Assembly: GCA_043826455.1 (NCBI GenBank)
Contig: JBDRQD010000011.1
Coordinates: forward strand, 1-14,500
DNA: 14,500 nucleotides
Direction: 5' to 3'
Origin: Candidatus Bathyarchaeota archaeon
GTDB lineage: Archaea > Thermoproteota > Bathyarchaeia > TCS64
The translations under genes and the position numbers were made by a program. Of the stretch, positions 1-14,500 are shown one piece after another (position 1 is the first letter of the stretch; each line of letters begins with the position of its first letter). The notes beneath the pieces are model-generated. The model made no database searches. It was not told where the DNA came from and worked only from the letters and a program-made list of their open reading frames with translations.

Positions 1-633
1 ATAAGGTGGCTGCCCGACTTCTACATGTTTATACCCCTGGGGCTGAGCGCCGGCATGGTGTACTGGCTGGCCAGGGGCTACGCCACCGAGAAAGCCGTCA
101 ACGAGTACCATGAGAGCGGCCTACAGCGCATCACAACCTACCCCTTCGACGACGAAGGCCGAGGCATCATAGTAGACGCGGGACCCCAATACTGGCGAAC
201 CGGCTTCATCAAAACCATACCGCTAGCGATTGAGGGCAAGGAGGGCTACCTGCCCCTAGAGATCAACGGGGTAAGCTACCCCCAGATAATCACCAAGGGA
301 GACGGCTACACCAAAACCGACAACGAGGTGAAGATCAAGAGCGACTGGAGCCTGGCCCAGGCGTTCGCAGAGGCCCGGCTCATCGAGAAGCTACAGAAGA
401 AGGTGGCCGAGATGGAGCTGGCCCAGATGCTCATGAACAGAGCTCTACCCGTGGTGGTGGTTAACAAGATGAAGTTCTTCGAGGCTACGCTGCGGGAAAA
501 CATACTCAGCAAGACCCTCAACCCGGAGCAGCTACACGTACACGTTAAGGACGCCACCAGGAAGCTCACCGAGGAGCTTCAGAAGGTGATGCCCGTACAG
601 CAGCAGCAGGAGGAGCCCGATGGCCAAGGATAA
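1..633 (+). CDS. Membrane-anchored hypothetical protein, probably 5'-truncated by the window edge
   Basis: Frame is open from base 1 (IRWLPDFY precedes the track's M at 25). Hydrophobic segment FYMFIPLGLSAGMVYWLA, helical or coiled-coil-like C-terminal half, and QQQQEE tail. Overlaps the next gene. Confidence 0.7.
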   Translation: MRWLPDFYMFIPLGLSAGMVYWLARGYATEKAVNEYHESGLQRITTYPFDDEGRGIIVDAGPQYWRTGFIKTIPLAIEGKEGYLPLEINGVSYPQIITKGDGYTKTDNEVKIKSDWSLAQAFAEARLIEKLQKKVAEMELAQMLMNRALPVVVVNKMKFFEATLRENILSKTLNPEQLHVHVKDATRKLTEELQKVMPVQQQQEEPDGQG

Positions 634-1033
634 GCCCCAGATGGATAACCTCACCCTGCTGGCTGCCCGGCAGGGGAAAGTAGGTGACAAGATACTCGAA
701 GCATCCAATAAAACCGGGGGCATGAATACGAAGGAGTGGGCCACGCTCCTCAACTTCGACATCCCTGAGACCATTGTAACAAGTCCCTCGGAGCGCACCC
801 GCAAAGCGATTGAAACCCTGACCAGAACAGAAGGGTATAGCGTACCCGAGAACCTATCGGAGCTATTCTGGATGATTTTTGACGACTTCGCCGCATCACG
901 CCAAGAGTATGTCCGGCGTGGATGGACCACCTTGGAGCCCGATCAACCAGAGTCGAAGAGCAGCATGACCAGCCCCCTCGAAGCCGAGGCGGTGATGGGA
1001 CCCCTCAAACACGAGGAGAAGGACGATGAGTAG
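620..1033 (+). CDS. Hypothetical protein, 137 aa
   Basis: ATG preceded by AGGAG (SD-like, ~609-615); overlaps both neighbours. No recognisable motif. Confidence 0.75.
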   Translation: MAKDKPQMDNLTLLAARQGKVGDKILEASNKTGGMNTKEWATLLNFDIPETIVTSPSERTRKAIETLTRTEGYSVPENLSELFWMIFDDFAASRQEYVRRGWTTLEPDQPESKSSMTSPLEAEAVMGPLKHEEKDDE

Positions 1034-4000
1034 AAGAACCAGACAGCGGAGACCCCGCCCCAGGCGGGATAAGGGACAGGGCATAGGCGCCCCAAGCAGA
1101 AGCATGGCCGAGAAGGAGCCCTACACCTTCACCGAGAGGGACGTAGAGGCGCTGAGGCAAATACACGCCACACGTTCATGGCAGGCACAGAGGACAGATG
1201 AGCACCTGATCGCACCCATAGCCCCATCGCCCAGCCACTGGATCAAACACCCAGGCCGCCTGGACGTACCCGGCGTAGACTACCCTGACACCAAGGCCCG
1301 CAAGGCGATGGAGAAACGCAGCGAGGCCGCACAGAGAACCGACAAAGCCCTGGAGGCTCCGCTGGCGCCCACACCCGAGGAGTGGATGAAGCACCCCGAG
1401 AAGTACGACTACCCCGGCGTAGACACCAGGCAGAAAACTGAAGCCAAAGAGGCTAGGGTAGATGAGCAAAAGATCGGTAACCCCATGGCTGCGCCCGACG
1501 CCGCTAAGAAGTTCCTGGCCGACGTCGTGGAGAAGTATCGGCGGAAGCTGGACATCAAAGGCCCGGTGAAGCTGAGCGCCCAGAACCGAGGCACCCCGGC
1601 CCGCATCCGCCACTTCGCCGGCGGCAGGACGCCCCAGATAGAGGTCAACTACAGCCACTTCGCAGGCGTCTGGGAGAAGGACCCGGAGCTCACCCAGAAG
1701 TACCTGGAGTACGCCATAGCCCACGAGCTATCCCACCAGAAACAGTACGAGGACCTGGGCCACAAGGGATACCGGAAAGCCTTCTCGGTGGCCAAGGTGG
1801 AAGGCGAGTGGGACGCCGACCAGCGTGCCCTCAAAGCCATGGGCATCACAGGCAAGGACCTGGACGACTTCATGGACCGGCTGGCCAAGAAGAGCGGCGG
1901 CGTCCACGAGAAGGCTCACCCGCCCTTCAAGGGCACCCCGAACATAGAGCGCTTCAAGGACACCACTCCCCTGAACAAGCCTAAATCCGCGCCGGAGAGG
2001 ATGAGGGAGCTCTACGTGAAAGCCCTGGGCGGAGTGTTACCCACCGCCACCCAGGAGGAGCTGAAGCGGATCACGGAGAAGGCCATGGCGGAGGAGTGGA
2101 TCAAGCCCGGCGACGAAGCCAAATCCGCCATGAAGCGGGTGGGAGACCTGGCCAAGGCTGAGCTGGTGAAGCTTCGGCAGGAGAAGGCCCACCTGGAGAG
2201 GGAGGAGCAGTTGAAGCGCCTCAAGGAGCTAAAAGAGAAGCACGAGGCTAAGACCAGCGACGAGGAGAGGAGCCGGCAGCGCCTGGCCACGCTAAGGGAG
2301 GACTACGGGGTTCAGTACGACACCGCGCTGAGCGCGGCCATGGACATCAACGTCAAAGGCTACAGCAGGAAACTCTACGGTGACCTCATAAAAATGGGGT
2401 ACAGCCAGGCGGAGGCAGCCGAGATCAGCAGCACCTTCAACGAGGGCTTCATAAACCGCATCCAAGGCGAGGCGCTGAAGAAGCAAAGACAGGAAGCCAT
2501 GGACCTTGCAAGGGACGCCTTCGGGGAGGTCCCGGAGCTGTGGGAGGACGCGGTAAAGAAATACATGGCAACGGAGGTCGCCCAGAGGCCCATCCCCGGC
2601 ATGGTTGAGGCCGCCTACAGGGAGGCCCTGAGCAGCGTCAGAGACAGAACCAAACCCGAGAAGCCTCCTGAACCCATTGCCCCGAAAGAGCCTTTCAGTC
2701 AAGTAACCCAGCCTGAGTACAACAGGAAAACCGGCATGTACGAGGTCGTGCGCTACGACCCTGAAAAAGTGAGGACCACCAAGAAGCAGTTTAAGACCCT
2801 GGAGGAGGCCGAGCGATACCGTCAACGCCTTAAAGAGGCCGAGCAGAACGCCCCCGCCGCACCTAAACCCACCGTCAAGACCCGCTCAGAGTCCTACGAT
2901 TTCTACAGTGACCCCGGCCACGGCTGGCTCCGTGTGCCTATCAAGAGGCTGGAGGAGCTGGGCATCGCAGACGACATATCCAACGCCAGCTACGTGAAGG
3001 GCGGCTACGCCTACCTGGAGGAGGACAGGGACGCCACCATATTCCTACACACCCTGGGGAGCTTGGGTGTCAAGGTCGGGCTAAGGGACCACACAGCTAA
3101 CCGTGAGAGTAGCATACGGGGCTACCAGCCCTACGTGAAGCCCAGGGAAGCCGAGAGTAAACCCGAGGCTGACAGCCCTTACAGCAAGGCCAAGAGGATC
3201 ATCCTGGCCGCCAAGACCCCCCAGGAGCTTGACGGCATCATAAAGGCCGTCTACTTCGAGGAACGCTTCACCGAGGAGGAGAAGACCGACCTAGCGGAAT
3301 ACGCCCGGGCCAGACACGGCAATATGCCCGACCAGAAACGACAAGGAAACGCCGCCCTGAACCCCACAGAGGAGGCCCGGAGACAGTACGATGAGACGAT
3401 GGCTGACAGGGTTCCCAGGATGGTTAAGACGTGGAGGATGAACCTGGGTAGAGCCCTCACAGATCAGGGTCTCCCGGTTGAGGCGGCGGAGAAGTACATG
3501 AACCGGCTCACAGCCGAGGCTGTGCAGAGCAGCCAGGCCGAGTACTTCGCCGAGAACCGTATGCAGGAGGGGGCCATAGATGAGAGAGTCATCGTAATGC
3601 CTGAGGTCACCGCTGAGCGTGACGCCCTGGGGCTAGTCCAGAACAAGTACGAGAAACTGAAGAAGGAAGCCCTAGAAGAATGGGCCAATGCAAGGAGAAA
3701 AACTACGGCGATCTCACAGAGCCCCGAGATTAAGAGGATAATGGAAGGCTACAAAACCGAGCAGCCCCCACAACAAGGAGCCACCGTCAAAGCTACACCC
3801 TCAATGAGGAGCCGAGTAGCTAGCATGAGCTTTAATGAGGCGAACGCCCTCATACGGGACTGCATCAAGGCAGCCTGCCCCACGGTGAGCGTACGCAGAG
3901 GCAGAGGCACCGCCGCCGGGTGGCTGGACATCTCAGGCAGTAAAGAGTTCGGTAACTTCACCGACGCCGAGAAACAGCAGCTAGCGACCCTAGGCATAAC

Positions 4001-6218
4001 CGCCAGCAGCAACGTACACTCAATGGACTTTGACGACAAGGCCCGATTCATAGAGCGAAACAAGCTCCTCGACGAGCCGGCGCCCAAGCCCAAGGACGAG
4101 GTAGTCATAGACATACCTGATAAGAAGCCCGCAGCCACATACGACGCCGAGACCGAGAAGATCATAAAGAGAATAATGGACGAGAAAGAGGTCTCCAGGG
4201 TCTTGGTGGAGAAGAGGATCGAGGAGGAGAAGGCCCAAAAAGCCGGCCTGATAACGACCGAGGCCGCCGCCACCTTCGTAGCTTACCAGATGCTGGGGGA
4301 GCCCGTGGGTAAGACGGCGTGGGCCAAGATCAGCATGAACCAGATGGGCGGGTACTTCCGCGTAAACGAGTACAGCCCAACACTGGACAAGGTGCTACAC
4401 GATAACGTCGCATTCAAGACCCGAGAGGAGGCCCAGGCATACGTTGACCGGGTGAACAACCCCGCCGGGTCTGAGACGCTGCCCAGCCTCAAGAAGGCCA
4501 CCGCCTTCAGCCCCGAGTTCAACAAGGAGTCGGGTATGTACGAGGTGGAGGTCTACAACCCCGAGACCAGGCGGAAGAGCAGGAAGCAGTTCAGCACCCC
4601 CGACAAGGCCGAACAGTACCAGAAGCTGGTGAACGACAACCCGGGGTGGCCCACCGAGGGCTTCAAGGAGAGGCTGGGCAGCAAACAAGGACTCCCCATG
4701 CACCTCATCACCGCCGAGAACAGCAAAAGCCGGGGCGATGAGGCACTAAAGTACGACGTCTACGAGCGGCTTCCACCGAACGCCAAGCGGGGCGACAAGT
4801 ACGTGGACGACAGATGGTACAAGTACGTGGCCTCCGGCACCACTGAGTACAAGGAGGCCCCAGGCAAGGAGAAGCTAGTCGAGGACCTGGCCAAGGAGTA
4901 CCTTAACAAGGGCTCCGTCGAGGTAGAGTTCTCGCCCAACCCCCACTGGACCCCAGCCCTCAGCCAGGTGGAGCGCCTGGAGCCCGCCCAGAGCAGCTAC
5001 AATAAGGGCAAGTGGAGGGTCCAGTTCTACGGACGCGACGGCCACGGCGACAAGCGGGAGGAGGGGATAGGTGAGCGGTGGTTTGACACCTACGGGGAGG
5101 CCATGGACTTCATCAAAGAGGGGCGGGGCCGATACGAACAGAGAGGCGTGCAGAGGGAAGGCATCTGGGCCCCCATATCCGAGCCGCCCCAGCTGCCCAA
5201 GGAGCTGGAGAGTTTCACCGGCAAACAGGACAGGTTCGAGGTGGACCCCCAGCCCAGATACACGGACACGTGGAACCAGGAGCTGAAGAGGAAGGAGTAC
5301 CACTGGGTCTTCAAGAATCAGGTAGGCGGCAACATTCACACCCTGGACCAGCTCAAGGATGAGCACCAGAAGGGCGAGTGGAGGCGCCGGGACAGGACGG
5401 AGGCCGCCAAGAGCAGCAGGACCATCACCCGCAAGAAGGGCATGAGCGGCAAAGCCTGGGACCACGTGGCCATGCCCGTAGCCGAGGCAGTAGGCTTCAA
5501 CAACAACGCCGTCATCGAGGCCCAGGGCGACACCGTGGCCTTCGAGGGCATGGATCAGAGCCACGTAGCCCTCATGGTGCTGCGGGTACCTAACAACATG
5601 AGCATCCCCGAGGGCAAGTACGAGGTAGCCGACTTCGACACGGATAAGAGGGTCACCCACCGCCGGCACCCCAAGAAGCTGGAGTGGGACAACGTGGAGC
5701 GCACCCTAACCGTCGCCAACGAGAACCAGAAGAGCTACATACGGTACGAGAAGGTCCACGACTTCCAGAACAGGTTCCCCGTCCCCAGGGTGGGGTTCGA
5801 CGCCAGGATCAAGCTGGACATGAAGGAGCTACAGAAGGCAGCCGACGGAGGTGCAGAGCACCTAGCCCTCAAGGTCAGCGAGGGACGCAGCGCCCTGGAC
5901 AGCAGCTTCACCTACCACTTCGAGAAGGACGAGAAGCAGACGGTCACCCACGGGGAGGGAGCCGACGCCTGGACGAGCGAGGAGAACGTGAAGGTACCTG
6001 TATCGGGCACAGTCGGGGAGGTGGAGAAGGCCGACAAGGACGAGGTGAAGGCCGTCTACACGACAAGCTACCTCAGCGACCACCTGGGCAGCCTCGTGCG
6101 GGCCGGGTTCCGGGACGCCACACTGGAGTACGCTGAGGACATGCCGCTGAAGATCACCGCCACCCGCGACGACGGAGCTTACGCAGAGTTCTGGCTAGCG
6201 CCCTGCATAGGTGTCTAA
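1026..6218 (+). CDS. 1730-aa multidomain polyvalent-type protein: Arg-rich leader, duplicated W-x-K-H-P module, zincin metallopeptidase, repeated AP2/Arm-like modules, DPGHGWL domain, LPD29-like and RPA-N-like segments, C-terminal PCNA-like clamp
   Basis: 5.2-kb uninterrupted ORF with strong GC3 bias. HELSH at 1722-1736 with downstream E (EWDAD, 1806). PCNA signatures MDQSHVALMVLRV (5550) and TLEYAEDMPLKIT...EFWLAPCI at the C-terminus. Internal repeats are visible in the translation. Confidence 0.9.
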   Translation: MSRRTRQRRPRPRRDKGQGIGAPSRSMAEKEPYTFTERDVEALRQIHATRSWQAQRTDEHLIAPIAPSPSHWIKHPGRLDVPGVDYPDTKARKAMEKRSEAAQRTDKALEAPLAPTPEEWMKHPEKYDYPGVDTRQKTEAKEARVDEQKIGNPMAAPDAAKKFLADVVEKYRRKLDIKGPVKLSAQNRGTPARIRHFAGGRTPQIEVNYSHFAGVWEKDPELTQKYLEYAIAHELSHQKQYEDLGHKGYRKAFSVAKVEGEWDADQRALKAMGITGKDLDDFMDRLAKKSGGVHEKAHPPFKGTPNIERFKDTTPLNKPKSAPERMRELYVKALGGVLPTATQEELKRITEKAMAEEWIKPGDEAKSAMKRVGDLAKAELVKLRQEKAHLEREEQLKRLKELKEKHEAKTSDEERSRQRLATLREDYGVQYDTALSAAMDINVKGYSRKLYGDLIKMGYSQAEAAEISSTFNEGFINRIQGEALKKQRQEAMDLARDAFGEVPELWEDAVKKYMATEVAQRPIPGMVEAAYREALSSVRDRTKPEKPPEPIAPKEPFSQVTQPEYNRKTGMYEVVRYDPEKVRTTKKQFKTLEEAERYRQRLKEAEQNAPAAPKPTVKTRSESYDFYSDPGHGWLRVPIKRLEELGIADDISNASYVKGGYAYLEEDRDATIFLHTLGSLGVKVGLRDHTANRESSIRGYQPYVKPREAESKPEADSPYSKAKRIILAAKTPQELDGIIKAVYFEERFTEEEKTDLAEYARARHGNMPDQKRQGNAALNPTEEARRQYDETMADRVPRMVKTWRMNLGRALTDQGLPVEAAEKYMNRLTAEAVQSSQAEYFAENRMQEGAIDERVIVMPEVTAERDALGLVQNKYEKLKKEALEEWANARRKTTAISQSPEIKRIMEGYKTEQPPQQGATVKATPSMRSRVASMSFNEANALIRDCIKAACPTVSVRRGRGTAAGWLDISGSKEFGNFTDAEKQQLATLGITASSNVHSMDFDDKARFIERNKLLDEPAPKPKDEVVIDIPDKKPAATYDAETEKIIKRIMDEKEVSRVLVEKRIEEEKAQKAGLITTEAAATFVAYQMLGEPVGKTAWAKISMNQMGGYFRVNEYSPTLDKVLHDNVAFKTREEAQAYVDRVNNPAGSETLPSLKKATAFSPEFNKESGMYEVEVYNPETRRKSRKQFSTPDKAEQYQKLVNDNPGWPTEGFKERLGSKQGLPMHLITAENSKSRGDEALKYDVYERLPPNAKRGDKYVDDRWYKYVASGTTEYKEAPGKEKLVEDLAKEYLNKGSVEVEFSPNPHWTPALSQVERLEPAQSSYNKGKWRVQFYGRDGHGDKREEGIGERWFDTYGEAMDFIKEGRGRYEQRGVQREGIWAPISEPPQLPKELESFTGKQDRFEVDPQPRYTDTWNQELKRKEYHWVFKNQVGGNIHTLDQLKDEHQKGEWRRRDRTEAAKSSRTITRKKGMSGKAWDHVAMPVAEAVGFNNNAVIEAQGDTVAFEGMDQSHVALMVLRVPNNMSIPEGKYEVADFDTDKRVTHRRHPKKLEWDNVERTLTVANENQKSYIRYEKVHDFQNRFPVPRVGFDARIKLDMKELQKAADGGAEHLALKVSEGRSALDSSFTYHFEKDEKQTVTHGEGADAWTSEENVKVPVSGTVGEVEKADKDEVKAVYTTSYLSDHLGSLVRAGFRDATLEYAEDMPLKITATRDDGAYAEFWLAPCIGV

Positions 6219-6219
6219 C

Positions 6220-6624
6220 ATGAAAAGAGTGAAAACGAGGAGAAACCGGCCAAGGCGCGACAAGGGCAGCGGTGTGAGCCCGCCCACCAGGAGCAGGACA
6301 CCAACATACGTGGACGGGGAGATAAGGGAGTTATCGGCGCCAACATACGTGGACGTCGGAGGCCGCAGAGTCAGGGTGATCTGGGAGGACAAGAAACTCG
6401 GCTCAAACGAGGGCTGGACCCACTTCGACGAGAAAAACCAGTGGGTGGGGCACATACACGTCTGGAAGGGAGCGAAGAACCCAGACAAAATAATCGCCCA
6501 CGAGCTGGCCGAAGGCACCAGTGGCATAGGCTCACAGATGTGGCAGGAGAGGCATGAAAAGATCAAACCCCTTGAGGACAGAATCTATAAGGAGCTAACA
6601 AAAGATGAGGCGAAACAAGCCTAG
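6220..6624 (+). CDS. Small protein with Arg-rich leader and HExxE (degenerate zincin-like) motif
   Basis: Track starts at GTG 6211, but ATG 6220 has AGGTG upstream and puts the RPRRD motif at the same offset as in the neighbouring genes. IIAHELAE at ~6490-6513 follows a beta-rich segment (EGWTHF...GHIHVW). Confidence 0.75.
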   Translation: MKRVKTRRNRPRRDKGSGVSPPTRSRTPTYVDGEIRELSAPTYVDVGGRRVRVIWEDKKLGSNEGWTHFDEKNQWVGHIHVWKGAKNPDKIIAHELAEGTSGIGSQMWQERHEKIKPLEDRIYKELTKDEAKQA

Positions 6625-7513
6625 GAGAACCCGCCCCAGGCGGGATACGGGCGGCGGAGTCAGCCCGCCCACCAGGAGCCGCCCCCAACCCAACCCGAAC
6701 ACGGCAAGGATCATCAAGGAGGTGGACAGCATCCTCAACGAGCCCCGCTACGAGGACTTCGTGAAGAGGCTGGGCGAGGCCGCCCGGGACCCCAAGGTAC
6801 GGGGCGTACTCATCGGCGGCCTCATGGACGGGAAGAAGCTGGATGACGTGGTGCAGCACGGCGACATCATGAGGATGTGCCTGAACCTCACCCCCATACA
6901 GCACGAGATAGACCTTGAGAAGAGCCTGGAGTGGGTGGGCAAGCACCCCGAGAACGTACCCCTCATGCTCCGGGGAGGCACCCTGGGGCCTGAGCACTTC
7001 GGCGGCGTCCCCATAGTAGTCAGCTACGGCCAGTACATCATAGACGGCCACCACCGTTGGAGCCAGGTCTACATGGTCAACCCGGAGGCCAGGCTGGAGG
7101 CTATAGACCTACACGTGGAGGACCCCAGGGCCGCCCTGCGGAGGAGCCAGGTAGCCATAGCAGCCATGACGGGGGAGGTCCCAGTGGCCAGGGTGGAGCC
7201 CGGTAAGAACATCTACACCATGAGCCCCGAGGAGATCAGGCGCACCATACCCAGGTACCTCAACCCAGCCTTCTACCAGGCCTTCTACGACACCTACCCC
7301 GACAGCTTCCAGAGTGAAGAGGACGTGCAAGCCTACATCTTCCAGAACATCATGAGGATGAGGCGGCACAGCAGACCCCAGTCCGACATCGGGCGCGAGC
7401 TTATGCCCCAGTATGGCAAGGTGGGCGCCCGCCAGGGCGTCGAGGCCCTGGAGGCCGGGGAGGTCAACATAGAGCCGCCCTACGTGAAGCGGCTACCTAA
7501 GAGCGGTGTCTAA
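6605..7513 (+). CDS. ParB/Srx-like domain protein with Arg-rich leader
   Basis: PIVVSYGQYIIDGHHRW; the DGHHR motif (7043-7057) is the ParB/sulfiredoxin-fold signature. No ParB HTH is evident and there is no adjacent parA. Confidence 0.8.
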   Translation: MRRNKPRRTRPRRDTGGGVSPPTRSRPQPNPNTARIIKEVDSILNEPRYEDFVKRLGEAARDPKVRGVLIGGLMDGKKLDDVVQHGDIMRMCLNLTPIQHEIDLEKSLEWVGKHPENVPLMLRGGTLGPEHFGGVPIVVSYGQYIIDGHHRWSQVYMVNPEARLEAIDLHVEDPRAALRRSQVAIAAMTGEVPVARVEPGKNIYTMSPEEIRRTIPRYLNPAFYQAFYDTYPDSFQSEEDVQAYIFQNIMRMRRHSRPQSDIGRELMPQYGKVGARQGVEALEAGEVNIEPPYVKRLPKSGV

Positions 7514-8693
7514 GGTGCCTGACCAACCAGAGCCCCGCCCCTACGAGCCCCACATACCCGACGCCTTCAAGGTGGACATGGCCAAGCTCCGCCGGGAGCG
7601 CAACCCCGTTTTTGACCCCATCATCAGGTCCCATGTGGACTGGGGCCTCTTCTATGAGGGCGGCTACCACAGCCTCCTCCACGGCAAGACCGGCGCCGGC
7701 AAGACCACGCTTCAGCTGTACCTTCTATGGATTCTGCATGAAGCGGGGCACCGGATCGTACACAGGGACGACGGCAACCGCGAGTTCCTGTACCTGGCGC
7801 CCTACGTGCCTATGGTGGTGTGGCACCCCGAGGGCACAGTCTTCGAGCTGAAGGCTCCTCACCGGTACCCTAACGTGGAGATACGGACCTTCACGGAGCC
7901 CGGGGAGATACTGGACGCCGTATATAAGACTCCTCAGCGGTTCCACGCCATTCTCTACGACTGTTACTGCTTTAAGCCTGGTCCCCAGGCCCGGTTCTAC
8001 AGCGAGTTCTTCAAGACCCTCATATTCCGGTGTATGCAGGCAGAGTACGAGGACTGGGACGAGGAGGATGAGACGGAGGGCGACGAGACCAGGGAGCCCC
8101 TGGTGGCCAGCTTCGACGAGATCAACGACCTGATACCGCCTAGAGGTAAGAGCCTCAGCAAGGACCACGCCGACGTACTCGGACAGATAGTGCAGAGCAT
8201 CAGGAAGCTCCGCAAGTACCGGGTCACCCTCATAGCCAGCGTCCACAGGTTCAACCAGTTAGACCTGGACGTGCGATCTCAGTTCTCATATTACTGGATT
8301 AAGAAGAGCTACGGCCAGGACATTTACCACTTCATGAACACGAACCTGTGGACGGTGACCGCTCAGAGCTACCAGGCCGCCATGAGGTTCGTAACCGCCA
8401 TGCCCAGGGACCAGGTGCTACTATTCGACGGGGACGGCAACTACGACAAGATGCGGTGGCCCGACATACCCCGAGTTAAGCCCCGTAACCGGGTGAAGGG
8501 CGAGATCAAGGCAGAGGAGGACGAGGGAGGGAGGTTCGACGAGATCGACTTGATCATAGCCGTCGCCAGGTCCAAGCAGCCCCCAGAGAGCTTCCGTAGT
8601 ATCGCCGACCGGCTGGGCCGCGCCCCGAGCAGCATAAGGGGACGGGCCGCCAAGCTTCGGAGGCTCCCCCACCTCCAGGAGGCCATGCAGTGA
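7506..8693 (+). CDS. P-loop ATPase of the FtsK/HerA class (Zot-like, A32-like packaging, or coupling type) with C-terminal helix-turn-helix
   Basis: Walker A GKTGAGKT (7683-7706) and Walker B LVASFDE (to 8120). RKLRKY (Arg-finger-like) is followed by TLIASVH and LDLDVRSQ, the usual FtsK/HerA motif order. HTH-like SFRSIADRLGRAPSSIRGRAAKL lies near the end. Start may be GTG 7515. Confidence 0.8.
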   Translation: MSKVPDQPEPRPYEPHIPDAFKVDMAKLRRERNPVFDPIIRSHVDWGLFYEGGYHSLLHGKTGAGKTTLQLYLLWILHEAGHRIVHRDDGNREFLYLAPYVPMVVWHPEGTVFELKAPHRYPNVEIRTFTEPGEILDAVYKTPQRFHAILYDCYCFKPGPQARFYSEFFKTLIFRCMQAEYEDWDEEDETEGDETREPLVASFDEINDLIPPRGKSLSKDHADVLGQIVQSIRKLRKYRVTLIASVHRFNQLDLDVRSQFSYYWIKKSYGQDIYHFMNTNLWTVTAQSYQAAMRFVTAMPRDQVLLFDGDGNYDKMRWPDIPRVKPRNRVKGEIKAEEDEGGRFDEIDLIIAVARSKQPPESFRSIADRLGRAPSSIRGRAAKLRRLPHLQEAMQ

Positions 8694-9370
8694 CGCCGCC
8701 GAGAACTCGGGGTTGGTGGCGTGACCATGACTACACGAGGCGGTCCGTGCTCCGGGACATCGAGGGCTTCATCGGGTGGGGCGCCCTCACGGATCTCGTT
8801 GAGTCAGCCGAGTCGGAGCTGGAGAAGGCCTTCCTCAGCACCGCGTTCCTCACCGGGGGCCGGGTATCCGAGGTCCTAGGGCTAACCAGGGACATGTTCG
8901 ACGTCGACCGGGAGGGAGGAGTGGCCGTCGTCAGAAACATGCCGCGTCTAAAGGTGTTCAAGAAAATTGGTGAGCTTCCCGATGGAAGCTGGGAGACAGA
9001 GTCCCTTGACGCGGTCCGAAGGCCCTTCCCATTGATCATCCAGGAGCCGTTGATGCCCTACCTGCTGGGCTGGCTTGAACGGGCAGGCAGTGGCTACCTT
9101 TTCCCCAGCCCACGTCGACTCGGGAGGCCTCTCAGCCGAGCCTGGGGCTACAAGACCGTTGTAAGAGTGGGTGAGAGAGCCGGGCTGGACATCTGGCCCC
9201 ACTGGCTCAGAAGCCAACGGGCCAGCCAGTTGGCGGCTGACTACAACCTCCAGGTTCTCGACCTGGTTGATTACTTCACTTGGCAGAAGGCGGACATGGC
9301 TCTTCATTACAGTCGGAGAGGCTGGGCCGGGCTGTTGGCGCGGATGAGGCCTCTGTCGCTGTACGTGTAG
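8690..9370 (+). CDS. Tyrosine recombinase/integrase, catalytic domain only (226 aa)
   Basis: TGGR58VSEVLGL, YLFPS, H171WLR174, W198 and Y207 give the R...HxxR...W...Y catalytic set. GTGA overlap with the ATPase stop codon. Confidence 0.88.
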   Translation: MTPPRTRGWWRDHDYTRRSVLRDIEGFIGWGALTDLVESAESELEKAFLSTAFLTGGRVSEVLGLTRDMFDVDREGGVAVVRNMPRLKVFKKIGELPDGSWETESLDAVRRPFPLIIQEPLMPYLLGWLERAGSGYLFPSPRRLGRPLSRAWGYKTVVRVGERAGLDIWPHWLRSQRASQLAADYNLQVLDLVDYFTWQKADMALHYSRRGWAGLLARMRPLSLYV

Positions 9371-9378
9371 GAGGTGGG

Positions 9379-9444
9379 TTGAAGGTGTACGGTGGATGGT
9401 ATACTGCGGCAGCGTCGAACCTTAGCAACGAGTTAAAGGAGTGA
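9379..9444 (+). CDS. Putative 21-aa micro-ORF (MKVYGGWYTAAASNLSNELKE)
   Basis: Strong archaeal SD GGAGGTG (9370-9376) just before TTG; stop overlaps the next GTG (GTGA). Confidence 0.3.
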   Translation: MKVYGGWYTAAASNLSNELKE

Positions 9445-9533
9445 GGTGGAGGCCTCAGAGGCTCAGGGAGGAGCTCTGCCCCGAGTGCCTTGAGAAGTAC
9501 GAGAAGGTGATGGAGGGTGGCTGTGAGCGATAG
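9441..9533 (+). CDS. Putative 30-aa micro-ORF with CPEC motif (half zinc finger; possibly a decayed gene)
   Basis: MRWRPQRLREELCPECLEKYEKVMEGGCER. LCPEC-x-x-x-Y is typical of small archaeal viral Zn-finger proteins; overlaps both neighbours. Confidence 0.4.
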   Translation: MRWRPQRLREELCPECLEKYEKVMEGGCER

Positions 9534-9750
9534 GCGGTACCGTCTGAACGCGGAGGAGCTTGAATTGGTCATCACCGGGCTAGTCTTCATCATCGACGGG
9601 GCTGAGGACCCCCGCCTCAGTGAGGCTGCCCTAGCTCTTGGCCGTCGCCTCTCTCAGGGCCGGCAGGGGAGGCCGGGCGGGAGGTGGACCCGGGAGGCGA
9701 ACCGGCTCTGGCTCTTGGCGGAGAGGCGTTCGGAGACCCGGAAATGGTGA
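9523..9750 (+). CDS. Small basic hypothetical protein (~75 aa)
   Basis: Track ORF 9517..9750; GGAGGGTG SD favours GTG at 9523. Arg-rich C-terminus with GRP motif. Confidence 0.55.
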   Translation: MSDRRYRLNAEELELVITGLVFIIDGAEDPRLSEAALALGRRLSQGRQGRPGGRWTREANRLWLLAERRSETRKW

Positions 9751-9792
9751 ATGGGGCCATTACTTTCGGCCATGTGTCTAATGGAGCCATTA
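9750..9792. promoter_or_regulatory. Pair of palindromic sites AATGG-NG-CCATT(A), 30 bp apart
   Basis: aatggggccatta (9750-9762) and aatggagccatta (9780-9792) are 12/13 identical, and each is an inverted repeat with a 2-nt spacer. Confidence 0.5.
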
Positions 9793-9878
9793 AAAAGGCG
9801 TGAATATGCCTCCTTTCGGGAATCCGGGCGGTTTAACGGGTTTTCAGGTGGGTGGGCGGGCGTACGGTGCCTAAGGGG

Positions 9879-9892
9879 TATACTATAGTATA
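9879..9892. repeat. Perfect 14-bp palindrome TATACTATAGTATA
   Basis: Reads identically on both strands; an AT island flanked by GGGG tracts in GC-rich context. Confidence 0.7.
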
Positions 9893-10344
9893 GAGGGGCG
9901 CCCGGGGGAAGGTTTTCGCGGGTTTTCTATCAGGGCCATGCTAAAGCTAGCTAAACAAGCCGATTGTTATCCTTACAGCCCTAAGGTTGACTTTTAACCA
10001 TTTAATATAATTCAATCCAAGCGCCAAGTCTGAAGAGCATCTATGGATAACGAACATTCAGAAGGCGGGTCAAGAGGTCAGCTTGAAATAGGTTCAACCA
10101 ATCACTCATCAGAATAAACGGGGAAGAGGACCTTTTCATATTCTTTATGTACACATTTAAGTTTGATAGATCCACAGACTAAATTCCATTATGCACTGGA
10201 TCTGTGGAATAGTTTAAGCTCGCTTAGGCGTGAAAGCATAGTCATCCCTAGTCTAGAAGATTAAAAATAAAGTAAAGAAAATGGGGTTTGTGGGTTTAGC
10301 CCGCGATCCTTCTGCTTATCTGCATAAGGCTTACGATTGCTGCG

Positions 10345-10677
10345 TTGGTGGCTGCTGTGGACGCTGCGCTGGGGTTGAAGGATAGAGGATATTGTAAAGC
10401 GTACGAGTACCTGGAGAAGCACACTGGGCTTCTTGTAACCTTCGCGGAGCTGGCGTTGGAGGGCGTTGAGGTGCCTTACACTACTAACCGGGTGGAGCGG
10501 CTCATGGGTGAGGTGGCGAAGCGTTGTAAGAACAGGTGGATGCACTGGAGCACAGAGGGACTGGAGAACCTGTTGAACATTCTACTGGTGAAATATTGTG
10601 ACAAGGAGCTGTATGCCAGTTTGAAGGAGAAGTATTATAGCGATGCGGAGGCTGTCATCAATGTGAAGGCAACGTAG
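10345..10677 (+). pseudogene. C-terminal remnant of an ISH6/IS256-like DDE transposase
   Basis: YTTNRVERLMGEVAKRCK...WSTEGLENLL matches the TxNxxER-M-x-E (catalytic E helix) and WSxxG pattern. Only ~110 aa remain and the N-terminal part is absent. Confidence 0.75.
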
Positions 10678-10819
10678 TGAAAAGTTGCCATGTAACATTG
10701 TTTCATTCCGCCTCTAATGGCGTCAGCCAATATCCGTTAACCAATAAGCAGACGGCACCAAGATTTGAGCATTAGTGTAATCGCTAAAAGAAGCCGTCAA
10801 TCACCACATACAACAAGTA

Positions 10820-12496
10820 TCACCAGACTAGACTGCTGATAGATACTAGAAAATAGAATAAGGAATAAACCACCGTGAAAACCGTTGAAGATAAGCCACG
10901 CCTCTCGTAAACCCAGAACATGGCCAAGGCTCCGAAGAACCCAAAAGGAATGTTATACAGGATCCGAGACTTGTTCGTCTCAAACGAAACAAAGTAGACC
11001 AGCGAAGACAAAATGACGAGGAACCATAGCCAACGCCCAGGGACATCATCAACCTTAAGAATGTACAGACCTATCGTGGCCAGCCCCAGCAAGACAAGGT
11101 TAGAGATGAACCCGCCGTAGATGTATGGGAAACAGAAGAAGAGACTGCTCCAGATATCGCCAAAGTCTACGAGGCCACTTACCGCCGTCGAGGTCACTGC
11201 CACCCCACCACCGCCCCCCAATGCCACAATCTTAACCACCTCGGCCAACCCCACCACCCCCAAGTAACCCCCAAGATAAAAGGCCCGGTTCTCGTACTTA
11301 GGCCCCCTCCGATACAGTACAAGGCCTATGATAGGCACCAGGCCCACGAGGTACTGGTCCATAGTCCAAGGATGAGTATAAACTAATAGACTGCCAACAA
11401 GAGAAGCCAACCCCAAGATTCTAAGGTTTTCCTCACGGATCGCCCGGAACAGCAGCCCCAGGGAGAAGAGAACTATGCTCAGAGCCAGAAGATTAGACAA
11501 GAAGAACGCATACAGACCCACCGTCACAGTCATACCGGTAGAGGAGAGGAAGGCACACCACGCCGCCAGCCGTGAGTTCCTAAAGATCTCCCAAGAAAAA
11601 TAGTACGACGCCAACACAAACATGGGATTAAGCAAGACCGGCAGAAACTGTAGCGCCGTGTGAGTGTCTAACCCGGTCACCCACCTGAACCCATAGAAGA
11701 AGAGGAAAAAGAACAGCCGCTGAGCCCCCACACCACTGGTCAGCCCACCCCACATATCTTCAACCGAGTAGAACCACTGGAAATAATGGGGGAGATCCAC
11801 CCCGAAGTCCACACCACTGAGATTCACCGAGGGAAAATAGGGGTAAACAGCCGCATATACCGAGAGGAACACAGAGAACCCCAGGAGCAACCTGCTAAAC
11901 CTATCAAACTCAGACTCACCCACCGTCAACTCCGGGAGCCTGAGCTTAACCCCTAACAACGGTTTAATCAACCAGAAGAAGAGGAAAGGCAATACAAGAA
12001 CCGGAAACAGGCGCCTGAGGACATGGTGAACATTATACATCAAGGCTGTGATCCCCGTAAGAGGACTAGGCACACCAAGCGGCCTGAGCACCCCCCAGTG
12101 GACTACCCCCAAACCAAGGAAAAACGATAAGACCCAGCACAACGAACTTGTGAACCTTCCCCTATCCCCCATATAGACCACACCCACCAGGCACATGAAC
12201 AGCGAGGCCGCTGAGACCCCCAGCTCCACACTGTACAGACAGTAAAACAGGGGCGCGGACGCCAACAGGACGCTCCACCTACCCGACAGGAAGTTCACCG
12301 CCGCCCACAGCACCATGAGGGCCACCATGGGCACCACCAGGCTGAACCCCAACTCAAAGTACCTGAACCCCACCTTCCTCTGGATCATGGGATGGTACCT
12401 CACCTGGAAAAAGTCCAGCAACTGCAAGACCCCAAAGATCAACTGAAACGACAACACGTACGGGTACCCGCGGCCAAGCAACTCTCTGGCGTCCAA
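10820..12496 (-). CDS. Polytopic membrane protein, probable GT-C-fold (PMT/ArnT/STT3-like) glycosyltransferase, 558 aa
   Basis: More than 10 hydrophobic helices. Loop motif GVDLPHY follows a TM helix, then LLNPMFVLASYYFSWEIF and YTHPWT, a pattern common in archaeal GT-C-like proteins. TTG start. Confidence 0.7.
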   Translation of the reverse strand: MDARELLGRGYPYVLSFQLIFGVLQLLDFFQVRYHPMIQRKVGFRYFELGFSLVVPMVALMVLWAAVNFLSGRWSVLLASAPLFYCLYSVELGVSAASLFMCLVGVVYMGDRGRFTSSLCWVLSFFLGLGVVHWGVLRPLGVPSPLTGITALMYNVHHVLRRLFPVLVLPFLFFWLIKPLLGVKLRLPELTVGESEFDRFSRLLLGFSVFLSVYAAVYPYFPSVNLSGVDFGVDLPHYFQWFYSVEDMWGGLTSGVGAQRLFFFLFFYGFRWVTGLDTHTALQFLPVLLNPMFVLASYYFSWEIFRNSRLAAWCAFLSSTGMTVTVGLYAFFLSNLLALSIVLFSLGLLFRAIREENLRILGLASLVGSLLVYTHPWTMDQYLVGLVPIIGLVLYRRGPKYENRAFYLGGYLGVVGLAEVVKIVALGGGGGVAVTSTAVSGLVDFGDIWSSLFFCFPYIYGGFISNLVLLGLATIGLYILKVDDVPGRWLWFLVILSSLVYFVSFETNKSRILYNIPFGFFGALAMFWVYERRGLSSTVFTVVYSLFYFLVSISSLVW

Positions 12497-12520
12497 ACCA
12501 GACTAGAGGAAGACTACAAC

Positions 12521-12530
12521 CTATAAATAA
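12521..12530 (-). promoter_or_regulatory. Archaeal TATA box for the membrane protein gene (leaderless)
   Basis: Minus-strand TTATTTATAG; TTTATA lies ~26-31 nt upstream of the TTG at 12496. Confidence 0.5.
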
Positions 12531-12653
12531 CTAAGGAAAGCCCACCAAACCCAACGCTCCCACAATCACAACGACGCCGACGAGTCCCCTTACGATACGT
12601 GACGCAGAAAGCCCACGACTTTAACCGTGGGATGAATGCACTCAACATAAACA

Positions 12654-12658
12654 TTATA
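12654..12658 (+). promoter_or_regulatory. TATA-like box for tnpA
   Basis: TTATA 25-29 nt upstream of ATG 12683. Confidence 0.4.
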
Positions 12659-12682
12659 CATTCATCAACCATCTAATAAGTC

Positions 12683-13084
12683 ATGGCGGGCACCAGATGG
12701 ACCCACAGTAACACCACCGTCTACAACCTCGGATACCACCTCATCTGGTGCCCAAAATAAAGACGAAAAGTGTTTGTTGGAGACATAGAGAAACGTTTAA
12801 AGGCGCTTCTAGTGGAGAAGGCAAGTAAAATAGGCGTATCCATAATTGAAATGGAGATAATGCCCGACCACCTACACTTGTTCATCAAGTCTTCTCCCAC
12901 AGCAAGCCCACACGGGATAGTTCAACAGCTGAAGGGCTACACATCACACGAACTACGAAAGGAGTTCCAGGAGTTGAGGACAAGGCTTCCCTCACTCTGG
13001 ACTCGAAGCTACTACGTGGAGTCCTGCGGGCACATCTCTGAGGAGGCCGTCAAGAAGTACATCGAGGAGCAGAAACACCATTGA
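12683..13084 (+). pseudogene. tnpA: IS200-type Y1 HUH transposase with in-frame nonsense codon
   Basis: MAGTRWTHSNTTVYNLGYHLIWCPK*RRKVF: TAA at 12758-12760 replaces the conserved Tyr of PKYR. HUH motif DHLHLF, LWTRSYY and catalytic KKYIEEQ are intact. Confidence 0.92.
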
Positions 13085-14091
13085 TCCTGACCTACAAGAT
13101 CAGGCATGGCGGAGACTTCTCTAACGAGTTGAGTAAGGCCGGGCGGGTAGCCAGCTTCGCCTTGAAGACAGGGACACAGTCATCCCGCGACGTTAAACAC
13201 ATCGGTTTGAAGTCGATGATCTCTAACCAGATTCTGAGGAAATACAGCCGAAACCGGGTCCTCAAGAAGGTGCGAAGCGTCAAGCTAACCATACCCTCTC
13301 AGGGAATCAGGGTTCTGAGGGAACTGAGGACGCTGATTATTCCATGCCTCGACTTGACCCTGAACTACCACTTCAGGGACGACTTCGAGAAGGTTAACCA
13401 GGTAGAGGTTGGAGACGAGTATGCCTACGTCTCGGTGACTGTTCCAGAGGAGAAGCCGTATGACCCGAAAGGGTGGATTGGGGTTGACCGGAACACCACG
13501 GGGCACATAGCGGTGGTGGCTGACCCTGAGACGGGTAAGGTCCTCAAGCTGGGGAAGTCGGCGAAGCACATCCATGAGAAGTATAGAGGTATACGTCGAA
13601 GCCTCCAGAGCCACGGGAAATACCATAAGGTCAAGGAGATCAGGGACAGGGAGAGCCGAGTCGTCAGAGACCTGAATAACAAGGTCTCTCGGAAGATCGT
13701 GGACGCGGCTAAAGGTTCAGGTAAGGGAATCAAGCTTGAGTTGCTTGAAGGCATAAGGAAGACTACGAGACAGGCAAGGTCGTTCAGGTACGCCCTGCAC
13801 AGTTGGTCGTTCTATCAGCTGGAGAAGATGATAGAGTACAAGGCCAAGCTGCTGGGCGTGCCCGTCGCCTACGTTGATCCAGCCTACACGTCGCAGACGT
13901 GCTCAAGGTGTGGACTCATAGGTGATAGGAACGGGAAGATGTTTAAGTGCCCGAGTTGCGGGCACGTTGAGAACGCCGACGTTAACGCTTCGTTCAACAT
14001 TAGTGTTCGTCAGGTAGGCGTTTCTCGATCCGCCGCAGACAGGGATGCGGTGGAGGGCTGCACTGATACGCCCAGAGAGGCTACGCCGATG
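13081..14091 (+). CDS. tnpB: Compact TnpB RNA-guided endonuclease (~336 aa to the presumed ancestral stop; frame actually stays open past the window end)
   Basis: Hand translation from TTG 13081 (TTGA overlap with tnpA): RuvC-I WIGVD136RN, RuvC-II IKLE220LL, HSWSFYQLEKMIEYKA, VDPAYTSQTC274SRC277, FKC290PSC293 and RuvC-III NAD300VNASFNI. Confidence 0.92.
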
Positions 14092-14162
14092 AGCGACGGT
14101 GACCTTAGAACCCCACAGGCTTCAGCCGTGGGAGTATGTCAGAAGAACCAGGACAGATGCAT
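13990..14162 (+). ncRNA. Predicted omegaRNA/reRNA (5' end approximate), with guide from the flank 14143-~14162
   Basis: In IS200/IS605 elements the reRNA scaffold overlaps the tnpB 3' end and right end, and the guide comes from adjacent flanking DNA. Only the RE hairpin and boundary are seen directly. Confidence 0.55.
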
Positions 14163-14179
14163 TGCATTGGTCTTGTTAA

Positions 14180-14500
14180 ACGCAGGCAGACGAGCCACGA
14201 CACGAGGCCCTCAAGCTCAGGAGAACTCAGCCCCTGACCGCAGCGGGCCTCGTCCAGGCCGCATGCATGGACGGCACCGACCTCCCAGCGTGGAGCAGCA
14301 GGGACCCCCACGACACCCTGAGAGGCCTGGGAGACCCCGACGCAAGGGTAGGCCGAGGCAAGAAGGGCTTCAGCTTCGGCTACCAGTCGCTGTTCCTCGT
14401 GGACATCGAGGGCTTCCCCCCCTCGGACACATAGAGGCGCCTCTGAACGTGAACGAGAAGCAGCTGGTGGAGGAGCTTCTCCTCAAAGTGCTGGGCGAGT
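14180..14500 (+). pseudogene. 5'-truncated, frameshifted IS5/IS4-like DDE transposase fragment (continues beyond window)
   Basis: One frame gives ACMDGTDLPAWS...GDPDARVGRGKKGFSFGYQSLFLVDIEGFP. A frameshift in the C7 run (14416-14422) leads to LGHIEAPLNVNEKQLVEELL. The DGT, DPDA and FGY motifs are typical of DDE_Tnp_1 transposases. No start is seen after TAA 14177-14179. Confidence 0.75.

Follow-up and report, generated by a model that had tools for sequence, protein, structure and literature searches.

A portable arginine-rich N-terminal tag on otherwise unrelated late proteins of an integrative element family of Bathyarchaeia

Why should three consecutive genes that otherwise have nothing in common begin with the same strongly basic peptide? 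This question is raised by a 14.5-kb stretch of archaeal DNA, the whole of contig JBDRQD010000011.1 (here C11, and referred to as the window), from an 81-contig, 2.95-Mb assembly of a Candidatus Bathyarchaeota archaeon. A first-pass annotation had noticed that the products of three neighbouring genes, a giant protein and two smaller proteins named P0002 and P0003, share an arginine-rich leader just upstream of a gene for an FtsK/HerA-class ATPase (P0004; coordinates in Table 1), and had proposed that the leader directs cargo proteins into particles or onto transferred DNA. Sequence comparison confirmed and strengthened the observation, and the functional reading plausibly fits the comparative pattern. 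The genes belong to a mobile element family of Bathyarchaeia that is newly described here; it is integrase-bearing and integrative, and three features define it: a packaging-type ATPase, membrane proteins encoded as a block, and a giant protein fused to a PCNA-like fold. Below, C followed by a number denotes a contig of the source assembly (itself G000), G a genome and L a related locus.

Translation reproduces the three leaders exactly as they had been quoted: MSRRTRQRRPRPRRDKGQGIGAPSRS for the giant (nucleotide (nt) 1026), MKRVKTRRNRPRRDKGSGVSPPTRS for P0002 (6220) and MRRNKPRRTRPRRDTGGGVSPPTRS for P0003 (6605). The R-P-R-R-D string starts at residue 11 in the giant and at residue 10 in the other two, and the Arg-rich leaders, of about 26 residues, end in G-x-G-[IV]-x-x-P-x-R-S. 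For P0002 the open reading frame (ORF) lister gave a GTG start at 6211, but the ATG at 6220 is preferred, with a Shine-Dalgarno-like AGGTG 6 nt upstream. The tag has a net charge of about +9 and no predicted fold. A hydropathy scan found no hydrophobic segment in any tagged protein, which bears out the earlier remark that a hydrophobic h-region is absent; where a Sec or Tat signal peptide would have such a segment, the basic part is followed by G-x-G-V-S-P-P-T-R-S. The core of an AT-hook is Arg-Gly-Arg-Pro, and no G-R-P core occurs in an alignment of 14 tags, which have R-P-R-R instead.

Over 19 core codons, the giant and P0002 have 4 identical, 9 synonymous and 6 non-synonymous codons, the giant and P0003 have 7, 5 and 7, and P0002 and P0003 have 10, 6 and 3. 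When all 28 pairs of the eight tags in the source assembly are taken together, the 532 codon comparisons divide into 195 identical, 198 synonymous and 139 non-synonymous. Different codons at conserved residues indicate that the peptide, and not the nucleotide sequence, has been conserved, as the first-pass annotation had argued from a few codons. A Shine-Dalgarno-like motif, defined by complementarity to the 16S 3' end of the source genome, precedes 22 of 23 tag start codons by 3-12 nt, against a background of 51 of 195 start-like codons in window positions 1100-8600. True starts downstream of the tag, which would have made the leader spurious, are thus not favoured. The tag is therefore translated and selected at the protein level. 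An in-frame Met that directly follows the tag of the giant (nt 1104) had been read as a trace of the tag's addition to a pre-existing gene; the Met is present, but the argument is weak, for among giant homologues only those of C11 and C8 have Met at that position. No Shine-Dalgarno-like motif lies upstream of nt 1104.

The position of the tag was examined at increasing distances from the window. In six frames of the assembly (5,894,948 residues) the strict pattern had four matches, of which three are the window genes and the fourth an ORF start on sister contig C8, and looser patterns added further ORF starts on C1, C8, C13 and C49. A profile built from 14 leaders (A1), searched against six frames of 79 genomes of the host's order, gave 20 matches at E<1e-7 in 8 genomes, every one beginning at profile position 1-4 and at the head of a long open frame; seven weaker matches (E 1e-3 to 1e-2) were partial, most of them in short frames, and were taken as chance. 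Against 1.84 billion protein representatives the same profile gave 14 matches at E<=1e-3, all from residue 1 (1-26 to 1-33). An iterated profile run on 65 non-redundant related loci (4,954 frames of at least 40 amino acids (aa)) matched 25 times, in each case at the first start codon, within 5 residues either way. All 59 profile matches are thus N-terminal, and a scatter of the motif over random positions in host proteins is not seen; in the source genome, nine of nine profile matches lie on element contigs. These searches support the expectation that the tag would be limited to the N-termini of proteins in elements with this ATPase, and it is restricted to one family of integrase-bearing elements of Bathyarchaeia.

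Past the tag, the giant, P0002 and P0003 show no BLASTP similarity to one another (E>0.9), in line with their first description as unrelated. With the first 27-30 residues removed, at least six tagged families are unrelated by BLASTP, all pairs having E>0.3 except for one L061/L090 match. They comprise the giant, P0002, the ParB-like P0003, a fourth family on C1, C8, C45 and C49 (179-457 aa), a 182-aa family in L014 and L061, and a 349-aa protein in L061. More distant elements encode tagged proteins of 305 aa (L072), 102 aa (L080), and 118 and 252 aa (L090). The two L090 proteins have no BLASTP similarity to each other past the tag, and the smaller has one marginal match to a 183-aa protein of L061 (24 residues, E 0.009). 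A tagged protein of L061 gives a weak SprT-like match (E 0.035). The 305-aa protein of L072 combines the N-terminal motif of the giant with a DUF2958 domain (72.7 bits); encoded at 9082-9993 of that locus, an element integrated in a 240-kb metagenome contig, it stands in place of the giant. The stretch just past its tag matches the family of the VP2 DNA-binding capsid protein of fuselloviruses below threshold (E 0.09).

Modularity is seen most clearly in the ParB-like family. Its members within the elements are tagged, while distant homologues of 258-274 aa, one of them named from an Omnitrophica metagenome-assembled genome (MAG), begin directly with the domain, and other homologues outside the elements have different basic N-terminal extensions. 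In one member the tag is followed by an insert of about 110 aa and only then by the ParB-like domain. This pattern indicates that the tag is a separable module which stays at the extreme N-terminus, and homologues outside these elements do lack it. Across all families it is a portable module, fused to otherwise unrelated proteins.

The tags also vary by element. The tag of P0003 is most similar (0.80 identity) to that of an unrelated protein on C1, and the tag of the giant is equally similar (0.77) to the tag of the C8 giant and to that of an unrelated C8 protein. Both tags of G006 read TRPKREK-x-E-x-GGS-x-P, both tags of G030 read RRRVR-x-[KR]R, and both tagged proteins of L090 start with VGPRRTRGRRSS. 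Mean tag identity between different families within one element is 0.52 (n=8), compared with 0.39 (n=176) when both family and element differ. Each element lineage thus has its own variant of the tag, common to its different tagged proteins, which fits co-evolution with a partner encoded by the element and fits gene conversion or shared descent equally.

Which proteins carry the tag, and which do not, is best seen from the composite order of the element in the source assembly, where an early module is followed by about 10 membrane proteins and then by the window genes (membrane protein, 137-aa acidic protein, giant, P0002, P0003, ATPase and integrase). Within the early module, found on C52 and C20, are genes for another ParB-like protein (the second of the element), for winged helix-turn-helix (wHTH) and zinc-ribbon proteins, and for a D5-like primase-helicase (PF08706, PF19263; phrog_864 at 1.2e-75), and none of these early proteins is tagged. 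The tag is confined to the late (morphogenesis) half of the element. Because C52 and C20 link the early module to the membrane module, a length of roughly 25-30 kb is suggested for the complete element.

The ATPase of 395 aa belongs to the FtsK/HerA class, as had been proposed; the class is confirmed by its fold and by its Walker motifs, G-x-T-G-A-G-K-T and D-E-[IL]-N-D, which are invariant in the alignment of its homologues (A2). Its structural model is of moderate quality (predicted local distance difference test (pLDDT) 68). Among solved structures the best fold match is the STIV2 B204 genome-packaging NTPase (TMt 0.70), with TcpA, HerA and FtsK also matched, and among viral models the Haloarcula hispanica virus PH1 ATPase ranks first (TMt 0.68), ahead of the A32-like, corticovirus and adenovirus IVa2 packaging ATPases. 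By sequence, the ATPase profile gave P-loop-level matches only among solved structures. The predicted fold favours a virus over a transfer element, and together with the block of membrane proteins it tilts the element towards a membrane-containing virus, which these elements probably are. No VirB4-size ATPase or relaxase was recognised, the only trace being a weak Replic_Relax match (E 0.0096). Nor did Pfam and PHROGs scans of the window, C1, C8, C52, C20 and L014 find an HK97-fold capsid protein, portal, scaffold or prohead protease, although distant homologues could escape such scans.

What, then, might the tag do? We tentatively favour the reading that it is an address peptide, by which late proteins that act on DNA are recruited to the DNA or the particle of the element and transmitted together with it. 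As the N-terminal part of soluble proteins of the late half, several of them with DNA-related domains, it would bring its carriers to the element DNA, into the nascent particle or both, by way of its net charge and its conserved Pro/Gly-containing core, and the carriers would then pass with the element DNA into the next host. The contrast between late and early modules, the cargo-like character of the tagged proteins and the precedent of phages T4 and P1 lead us to this reading; from them we infer both the target of the tag (DNA, a particle protein, or the membrane and its acidic lipids) and the outcome, co-packaging or co-delivery. The cargo-like content includes P0003 with its ParB-like domain, the giant with its HExxH motif and the DUF2958 protein of L072, and the excerpted text of PMC5512222 describes DdrB-like ParB and zincin peptidase domains as typical of what phages package in their heads. 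As to the precedent, foreign proteins enter capsids when they carry the first 30 residues of P1 DarB or the T4 capsid targeting sequence, according to the excerpted text of PMC9024508. A bolder version, which is possible but rather doubtful, would make the tag the first known particle-targeting (cargo-loading) signal of the archaeal virosphere: a portable signal, read by a co-evolving protein of the late module, that loads DNA-acting proteins, including the PCNA-fused giant, into a membrane-containing particle. If this were true, any protein given the tag could be loaded.

Several points weigh against an address peptide acting in a virus. Pfam and PHROGs recognise no structural protein, the element is known from its genes alone, so that 'virus' is a deduction from them, and there is no particle, capsid protein or virion proteome of the element on record. 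At the sensitivity used, it is found neither among the viral contigs of IMG/VR nor in the phage records of GenBank. No binding partner of the tag has been identified, and a co-fold of the tag profile A1 with the ATPase alignment A2 scored 0.00, which is evidence neither way. Three soluble late proteins, the 137-aa acidic protein, the ATPase and the integrase, are untagged. Tags of the same family in different elements (0.49, n=69) are about as similar as tags of different families within an element, and the within-element variants could stem from gene conversion or common descent and not from co-evolution with a receptor. Finally, in viruses that pump their DNA into a preformed shell, a folded 190-kDa protein cannot go in after it through the portal; loading would have to precede or bypass packaging. 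A role of the 137-aa acidic protein as a chaperone of the tag was considered and rejected, its acidity not being conserved (the homologues in L014 and L061 have basic C-termini).

Other explanations of the tag deserve consideration alongside the address peptide. It is unlikely, yet to be taken seriously, that the tag is an intracellular nucleic-acid anchor, that is, an Arg-rich, S/T-P-containing tail that holds the element's enzymes on DNA or RNA and takes no part in packaging or delivery. Non-specific binding of nucleic acids by Arg-rich tails is common, and the charge of the tag, its lack of a hydrophobic segment or predicted fold, and the DNA-related domains of its carriers (the PCNA-like fold, the ParB-like domain and the weak SprT-like match of L061) would all suit such a tail. 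An anchor of this kind sits poorly with the early module, whose DNA-binding and replication proteins (the second ParB-like protein, the D5-like primase-helicase and the wHTH proteins) do without it. The conservation is moreover position-specific and includes the non-basic P, D/E, G-x-G and P-x-R-S, which exceeds the needs of a purely electrostatic tail and argues that more than charge is at work.

That the tag is a cleavable pro-peptide or membrane-recruitment leader, which would take its carriers to the inner face of the membrane or to a protease of the element and then be removed, seems quite improbable. Candidate proteases would be a conserved Rce1/CPBP-family intramembrane protease, encoded on C1 two genes away from a tagged gene, and the HExxH region of the giant. 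The sharp conserved P-x-R-S boundary beyond which the sequences diverge, and the Met directly after the tag in the C11 and C8 giants, would be compatible with cleavage. However, the position right after the tag is variable (M, R, K, L or Q), and Rce1-type enzymes are known for C-terminal CAAX processing and not for N-terminal leaders of this sort. Packaged phage proteins are often processed, as the excerpted text of PMC5512222 has it, and removal of the tag would be compatible with an address peptide rather than exclusive of it. Scarcely credible is a nucleotide-level feature or annotation artefact, in which a regulatory or recombination sequence at gene starts would be mistaken for a leader and translation would start downstream. 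The in-frame Met right after the giant's tag speaks for it; the synonymous codon pairs at core positions (198, compared with 195 identical ones), the Shine-Dalgarno-like motifs at 22 of 23 tag starts with none at nt 1104, and the lack of an alternative start just past the tag in P0002, P0003 and most homologues speak against it.

Table 1. Genes, tags and domains of the element part of the window
Feature	Position	Strand	Evidence
Membrane protein, 3' part of core gene; about 394 aa in full-length C8 copy	1..633	+	95% identical to C8 3285-4469
Small acidic protein, 137 aa, isoelectric point 4.8, core gene, untagged	620..1033	+	Alignment A3, 8 homologues
Arg-rich tag of giant, 26 codons	1026..1103	+	Translation, tag profile matches; GAGG 9 nt upstream of ATG
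Giant tagged protein, 1730 aa	1026..6218	+	Homologues on C13 (61% identity), C8, L016, L013, L014
PCNA-like sliding-clamp fold at giant C-terminus, limits approximate (predicted)	5448..6215	+	AlphaFold and Foldseek
Arg-rich tag of P0002, 25 codons	6220..6294	+	Translation, profile matches; AGGTG 6 nt upstream
P0002, small tagged protein, 134 aa, HELAE motif	6220..6624	+	Translation; no family match
Arg-rich tag of P0003, 25 codons	6605..6679	+	Translation, profile matches; AGGAG 10 nt upstream
P0003, tagged ParB/Srx-like protein, 302 aa, DGHHR motif	6605..7513	+	43 homologues
P0004, FtsK/HerA-class ATPase with C-terminal winged-helix-like domain, untagged	7506..8693	+	Walker A/B motifs (alignment A2), fold
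Tyrosine recombinase (integrase), end of element	8690..9370	+	PF00589 30.5 bits (cut-off 27.1); phrog_1 integrase

The giant is laid out as tag, duplicated N-terminal motif, HELSH (HExxH) motif at nt 1722-1736 (spotted by eye), long helical regions and PCNA-like C-terminus. Nothing significant was found for it in Pfam or PHROGs, and none of seven sub-segments scanned had a Pfam match. AlphaFold models the last 350 residues with a pLDDT of 85.8, and the last ~260 are predicted to form a two-domain PCNA-like clamp; the top PDB matches listed by Foldseek are PCNAs, mostly archaeal (best 5a6d, E 7.9e-13, TMt 0.60), and Atlas feature matches to viral clamp clusters reach 0.89-0.90. Homologues from six other loci share the PCNA-like end, among them a 369-aa remnant in the integrated copy L011. 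We met no description in the literature of a PCNA domain ending a protein of 1,000-1,700 residues, although no systematic search was made. The giant may be a polyvalent protein, as initially described, going by the HExxH motif and the PCNA-like end verified by fold but not by family matches. AP2-like or SPOR-like assignments for its ~45-residue repeats and for the C-terminal module of the fourth tagged family had no Pfam support and were dropped. The ParB/Srx-like identity given to P0003 is supported through its distant homologues, and the DGHHR motif is present, although P0003 itself has no Pfam match; 8 of 10 such homologues match PF08857 ParBc_2 (E 1.5e-6 to 0.12), with only P0039 above the cut-off (28.9 bits). 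On C13 the ATPase gene directly follows the giant gene and P0002 is absent, an arrangement which indicates that P0002 and P0003 are accessory genes.

The genes on either side are also partly conserved. The full-length C8 copy of the membrane protein that opens the window has a signal peptide and transmembrane segments, and in L013, L014 and L072 homologues of its gene precede that of the giant. The gene for the 137-aa acidic protein adjoins the giant gene in most elements; in L013 a ParB-like gene intervenes. Most proteins of the membrane block have no Pfam match and none has a PHROGs match. Several are type-I proteins with C-terminal anchors, L014 contributes a CBM96 domain, and one is a two-helix hairpin protein, which could be a spindle-virus capsid protein or a VirB2-like pilin but gave Atlas matches at noise level only (0.82). 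The Rce1/CPBP-family gene is conserved within the block (L021 on C1, 3254-3934, minus strand; homologues in L022, L024, L014 and L072), and the C1 protein scores 31.7 bits against PF02517 (cut-off 22.4) and has SEEAFR and H-x-x-x-N motifs.

The integrase is 79% identical to a copy on C67, and window 8705-9994, which holds the integrase and the small ORFs after it, is 72-76% identical in DNA to C67 34848-36386. Because the genes upstream differ on C67, the integration module appears common to different elements. To the right, a stretch of lower GC content (0.45-0.55) holds, on the minus strand, a fragment at 10345-10677 that resembles a Mutator-family transposase C-terminus (E 0.0021, below cut-off) and, at 10820-12496, a 558-aa ORF that has no family match. 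An IS200/IS605-type pair follows at 12770-14499, consisting of a Y1 transposase (PF01797, 1.7e-31) and then a TnpB-like gene with a Cas12f1-like TNB domain that runs off the contig end; copies of this 3' end that are 82-84% identical occur on C29, C31 and C34. Contig depth over the element part (1-9993) is about twice that over the right-hand flank (10343-14299), for example 25.9 over 6123-9487 and 13 over 11226-14299, as read from the sequencing run in which 93% of the words sampled from the window occur. This doubling could reflect extra free or variant copies, contig depths being crude and related variants possibly summing. Positions 1-7000 show a strong excess of A over T on the coding (plus) strand, with an AT skew of 0.29-0.46 and almost no GC skew; the AT skew falls to about 0.1-0.2 over the ATPase gene and to near zero over the integrase.

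Several related copies or variants of the element are present in pieces in the source assembly, on C1, C7, C8, C13, C45, C49, C20 and C52 (loci L021-L026, L066 and L067), and most of the loci compared are likewise fragments and not complete elements. Homologues of the ATPase were found in 7 of 41 related genomes, the source genome counted, and all 12 loci in named records with a homologue derive from MAGs of Bathyarchaeia or Bathyarchaeota. A further 41 metagenome loci have a relative of the ATPase, and one of them, inside the 240-kb contig, is integrated. IMG/VR gave no relatives by protein or alignment query, and tblastn of the ATPase against GenBank phage records gave none at E 1e-3 and P-loop noise only at E 10. 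With a crude finder, no arrays of clustered regularly interspaced short palindromic repeats (CRISPR) were found in the source assembly; short window matches to other contigs, considered as CRISPR spacers, proved to be further element copies (C20, C52). The single RNA library yielded a few short contigs, which do not show transcription.

Bathyarchaeia are among the most abundant sediment archaea, and little is known of their elements. A short sequence common to unrelated proteins offers a handle on which proteins travel with the DNA. If the cargo reading holds, tag-directed protein loading, so far known from encapsulins and tailed phages, would also occur in archaeal elements, and it would suggest that a new host receives clamp and ParB-like enzymes from the element itself. 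No description of the motif or of the element family was found in the literature, preprint supplements not being covered. A survey whose excerpted text proposes four families of Bathyarchaeia viruses (PMC10848311) does not use the word 'arginine' in its main text. It includes Huangdivirus, the only spindle-shaped provirus described from Bathyarchaeia and the only provirus of theirs described with an integrase next to an ATPase (PMC10848311). The host class and this gene neighbourhood are the same here; however, Huangdivirus was rejected as a relative, as its ATPase is an SSV1 B251/DnaA-like AAA+ protein of about 235 aa and not a 395-aa FtsK/HerA protein (PMC10848311, Table S4).

Among known systems, the capsid targeting sequences of T4 and P1 and the Arg-rich core proteins of viruses are the nearest parallels in function. 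The T4 and P1 sequences resemble the present tag in being short N-terminal peptides on otherwise unrelated proteins, here as a sequence pattern only. In the excerpted text of PMC9024508 such peptides suffice for loading into particles, and the P1 cargo includes, alongside anti-restriction enzymes, a protein that is ParB-like and has a peptidase domain (PMC9024508; likewise the excerpted PMC5512222). T4 and P1 are, however, tailed phages with HK97-type capsids, scaffolding cores and prohead proteases; the scans described above found nothing of the kind here, and the present tag is extremely basic and shares no sequence similarity with theirs. The polyvalent or injected proteins of phages and conjugative elements in Iyer et al. 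2017 (PMC5512222) offer another parallel, a large multidomain protein together with solo ParB-like and peptidase-like proteins; in its excerpted text these, like the carriers here, are encoded among late or transfer genes and are predicted to travel with the DNA. The giant has no family-level match to the catalogued domains, and the text of that paper (PMC5512222) mentions archaea only three times and 'N-terminal signal', PCNA and sliding clamp not at all.

The Arg-rich arms and core proteins of viruses such as adenovirus are, like the tag, strongly basic and unstructured, and the tag would in the same manner neutralise and bind the genome; the adenovirus core proteins also coexist with an FtsK/HerA-type packaging ATPase, IVa2, which is among the fold matches of P0004. 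Known arms of this kind sit on capsid or dedicated core proteins, whereas here one motif is found on enzyme-like and clamp-like proteins from at least six BLASTP-unrelated families. The signals read by VirD4-type coupling proteins of type IV secretion systems are also Arg-rich, unstructured and carried by proteins that accompany transferred DNA, and the coupling protein TcpA is among the fold matches of the ATPase. Those translocation signals are C-terminal, and the tag was N-terminal in every one of its 59 profile matches. The tag is plausibly a variant on a known principle, either peptide-addressed cargo or Arg-rich genome-binding tails, in a new archaeal element family.

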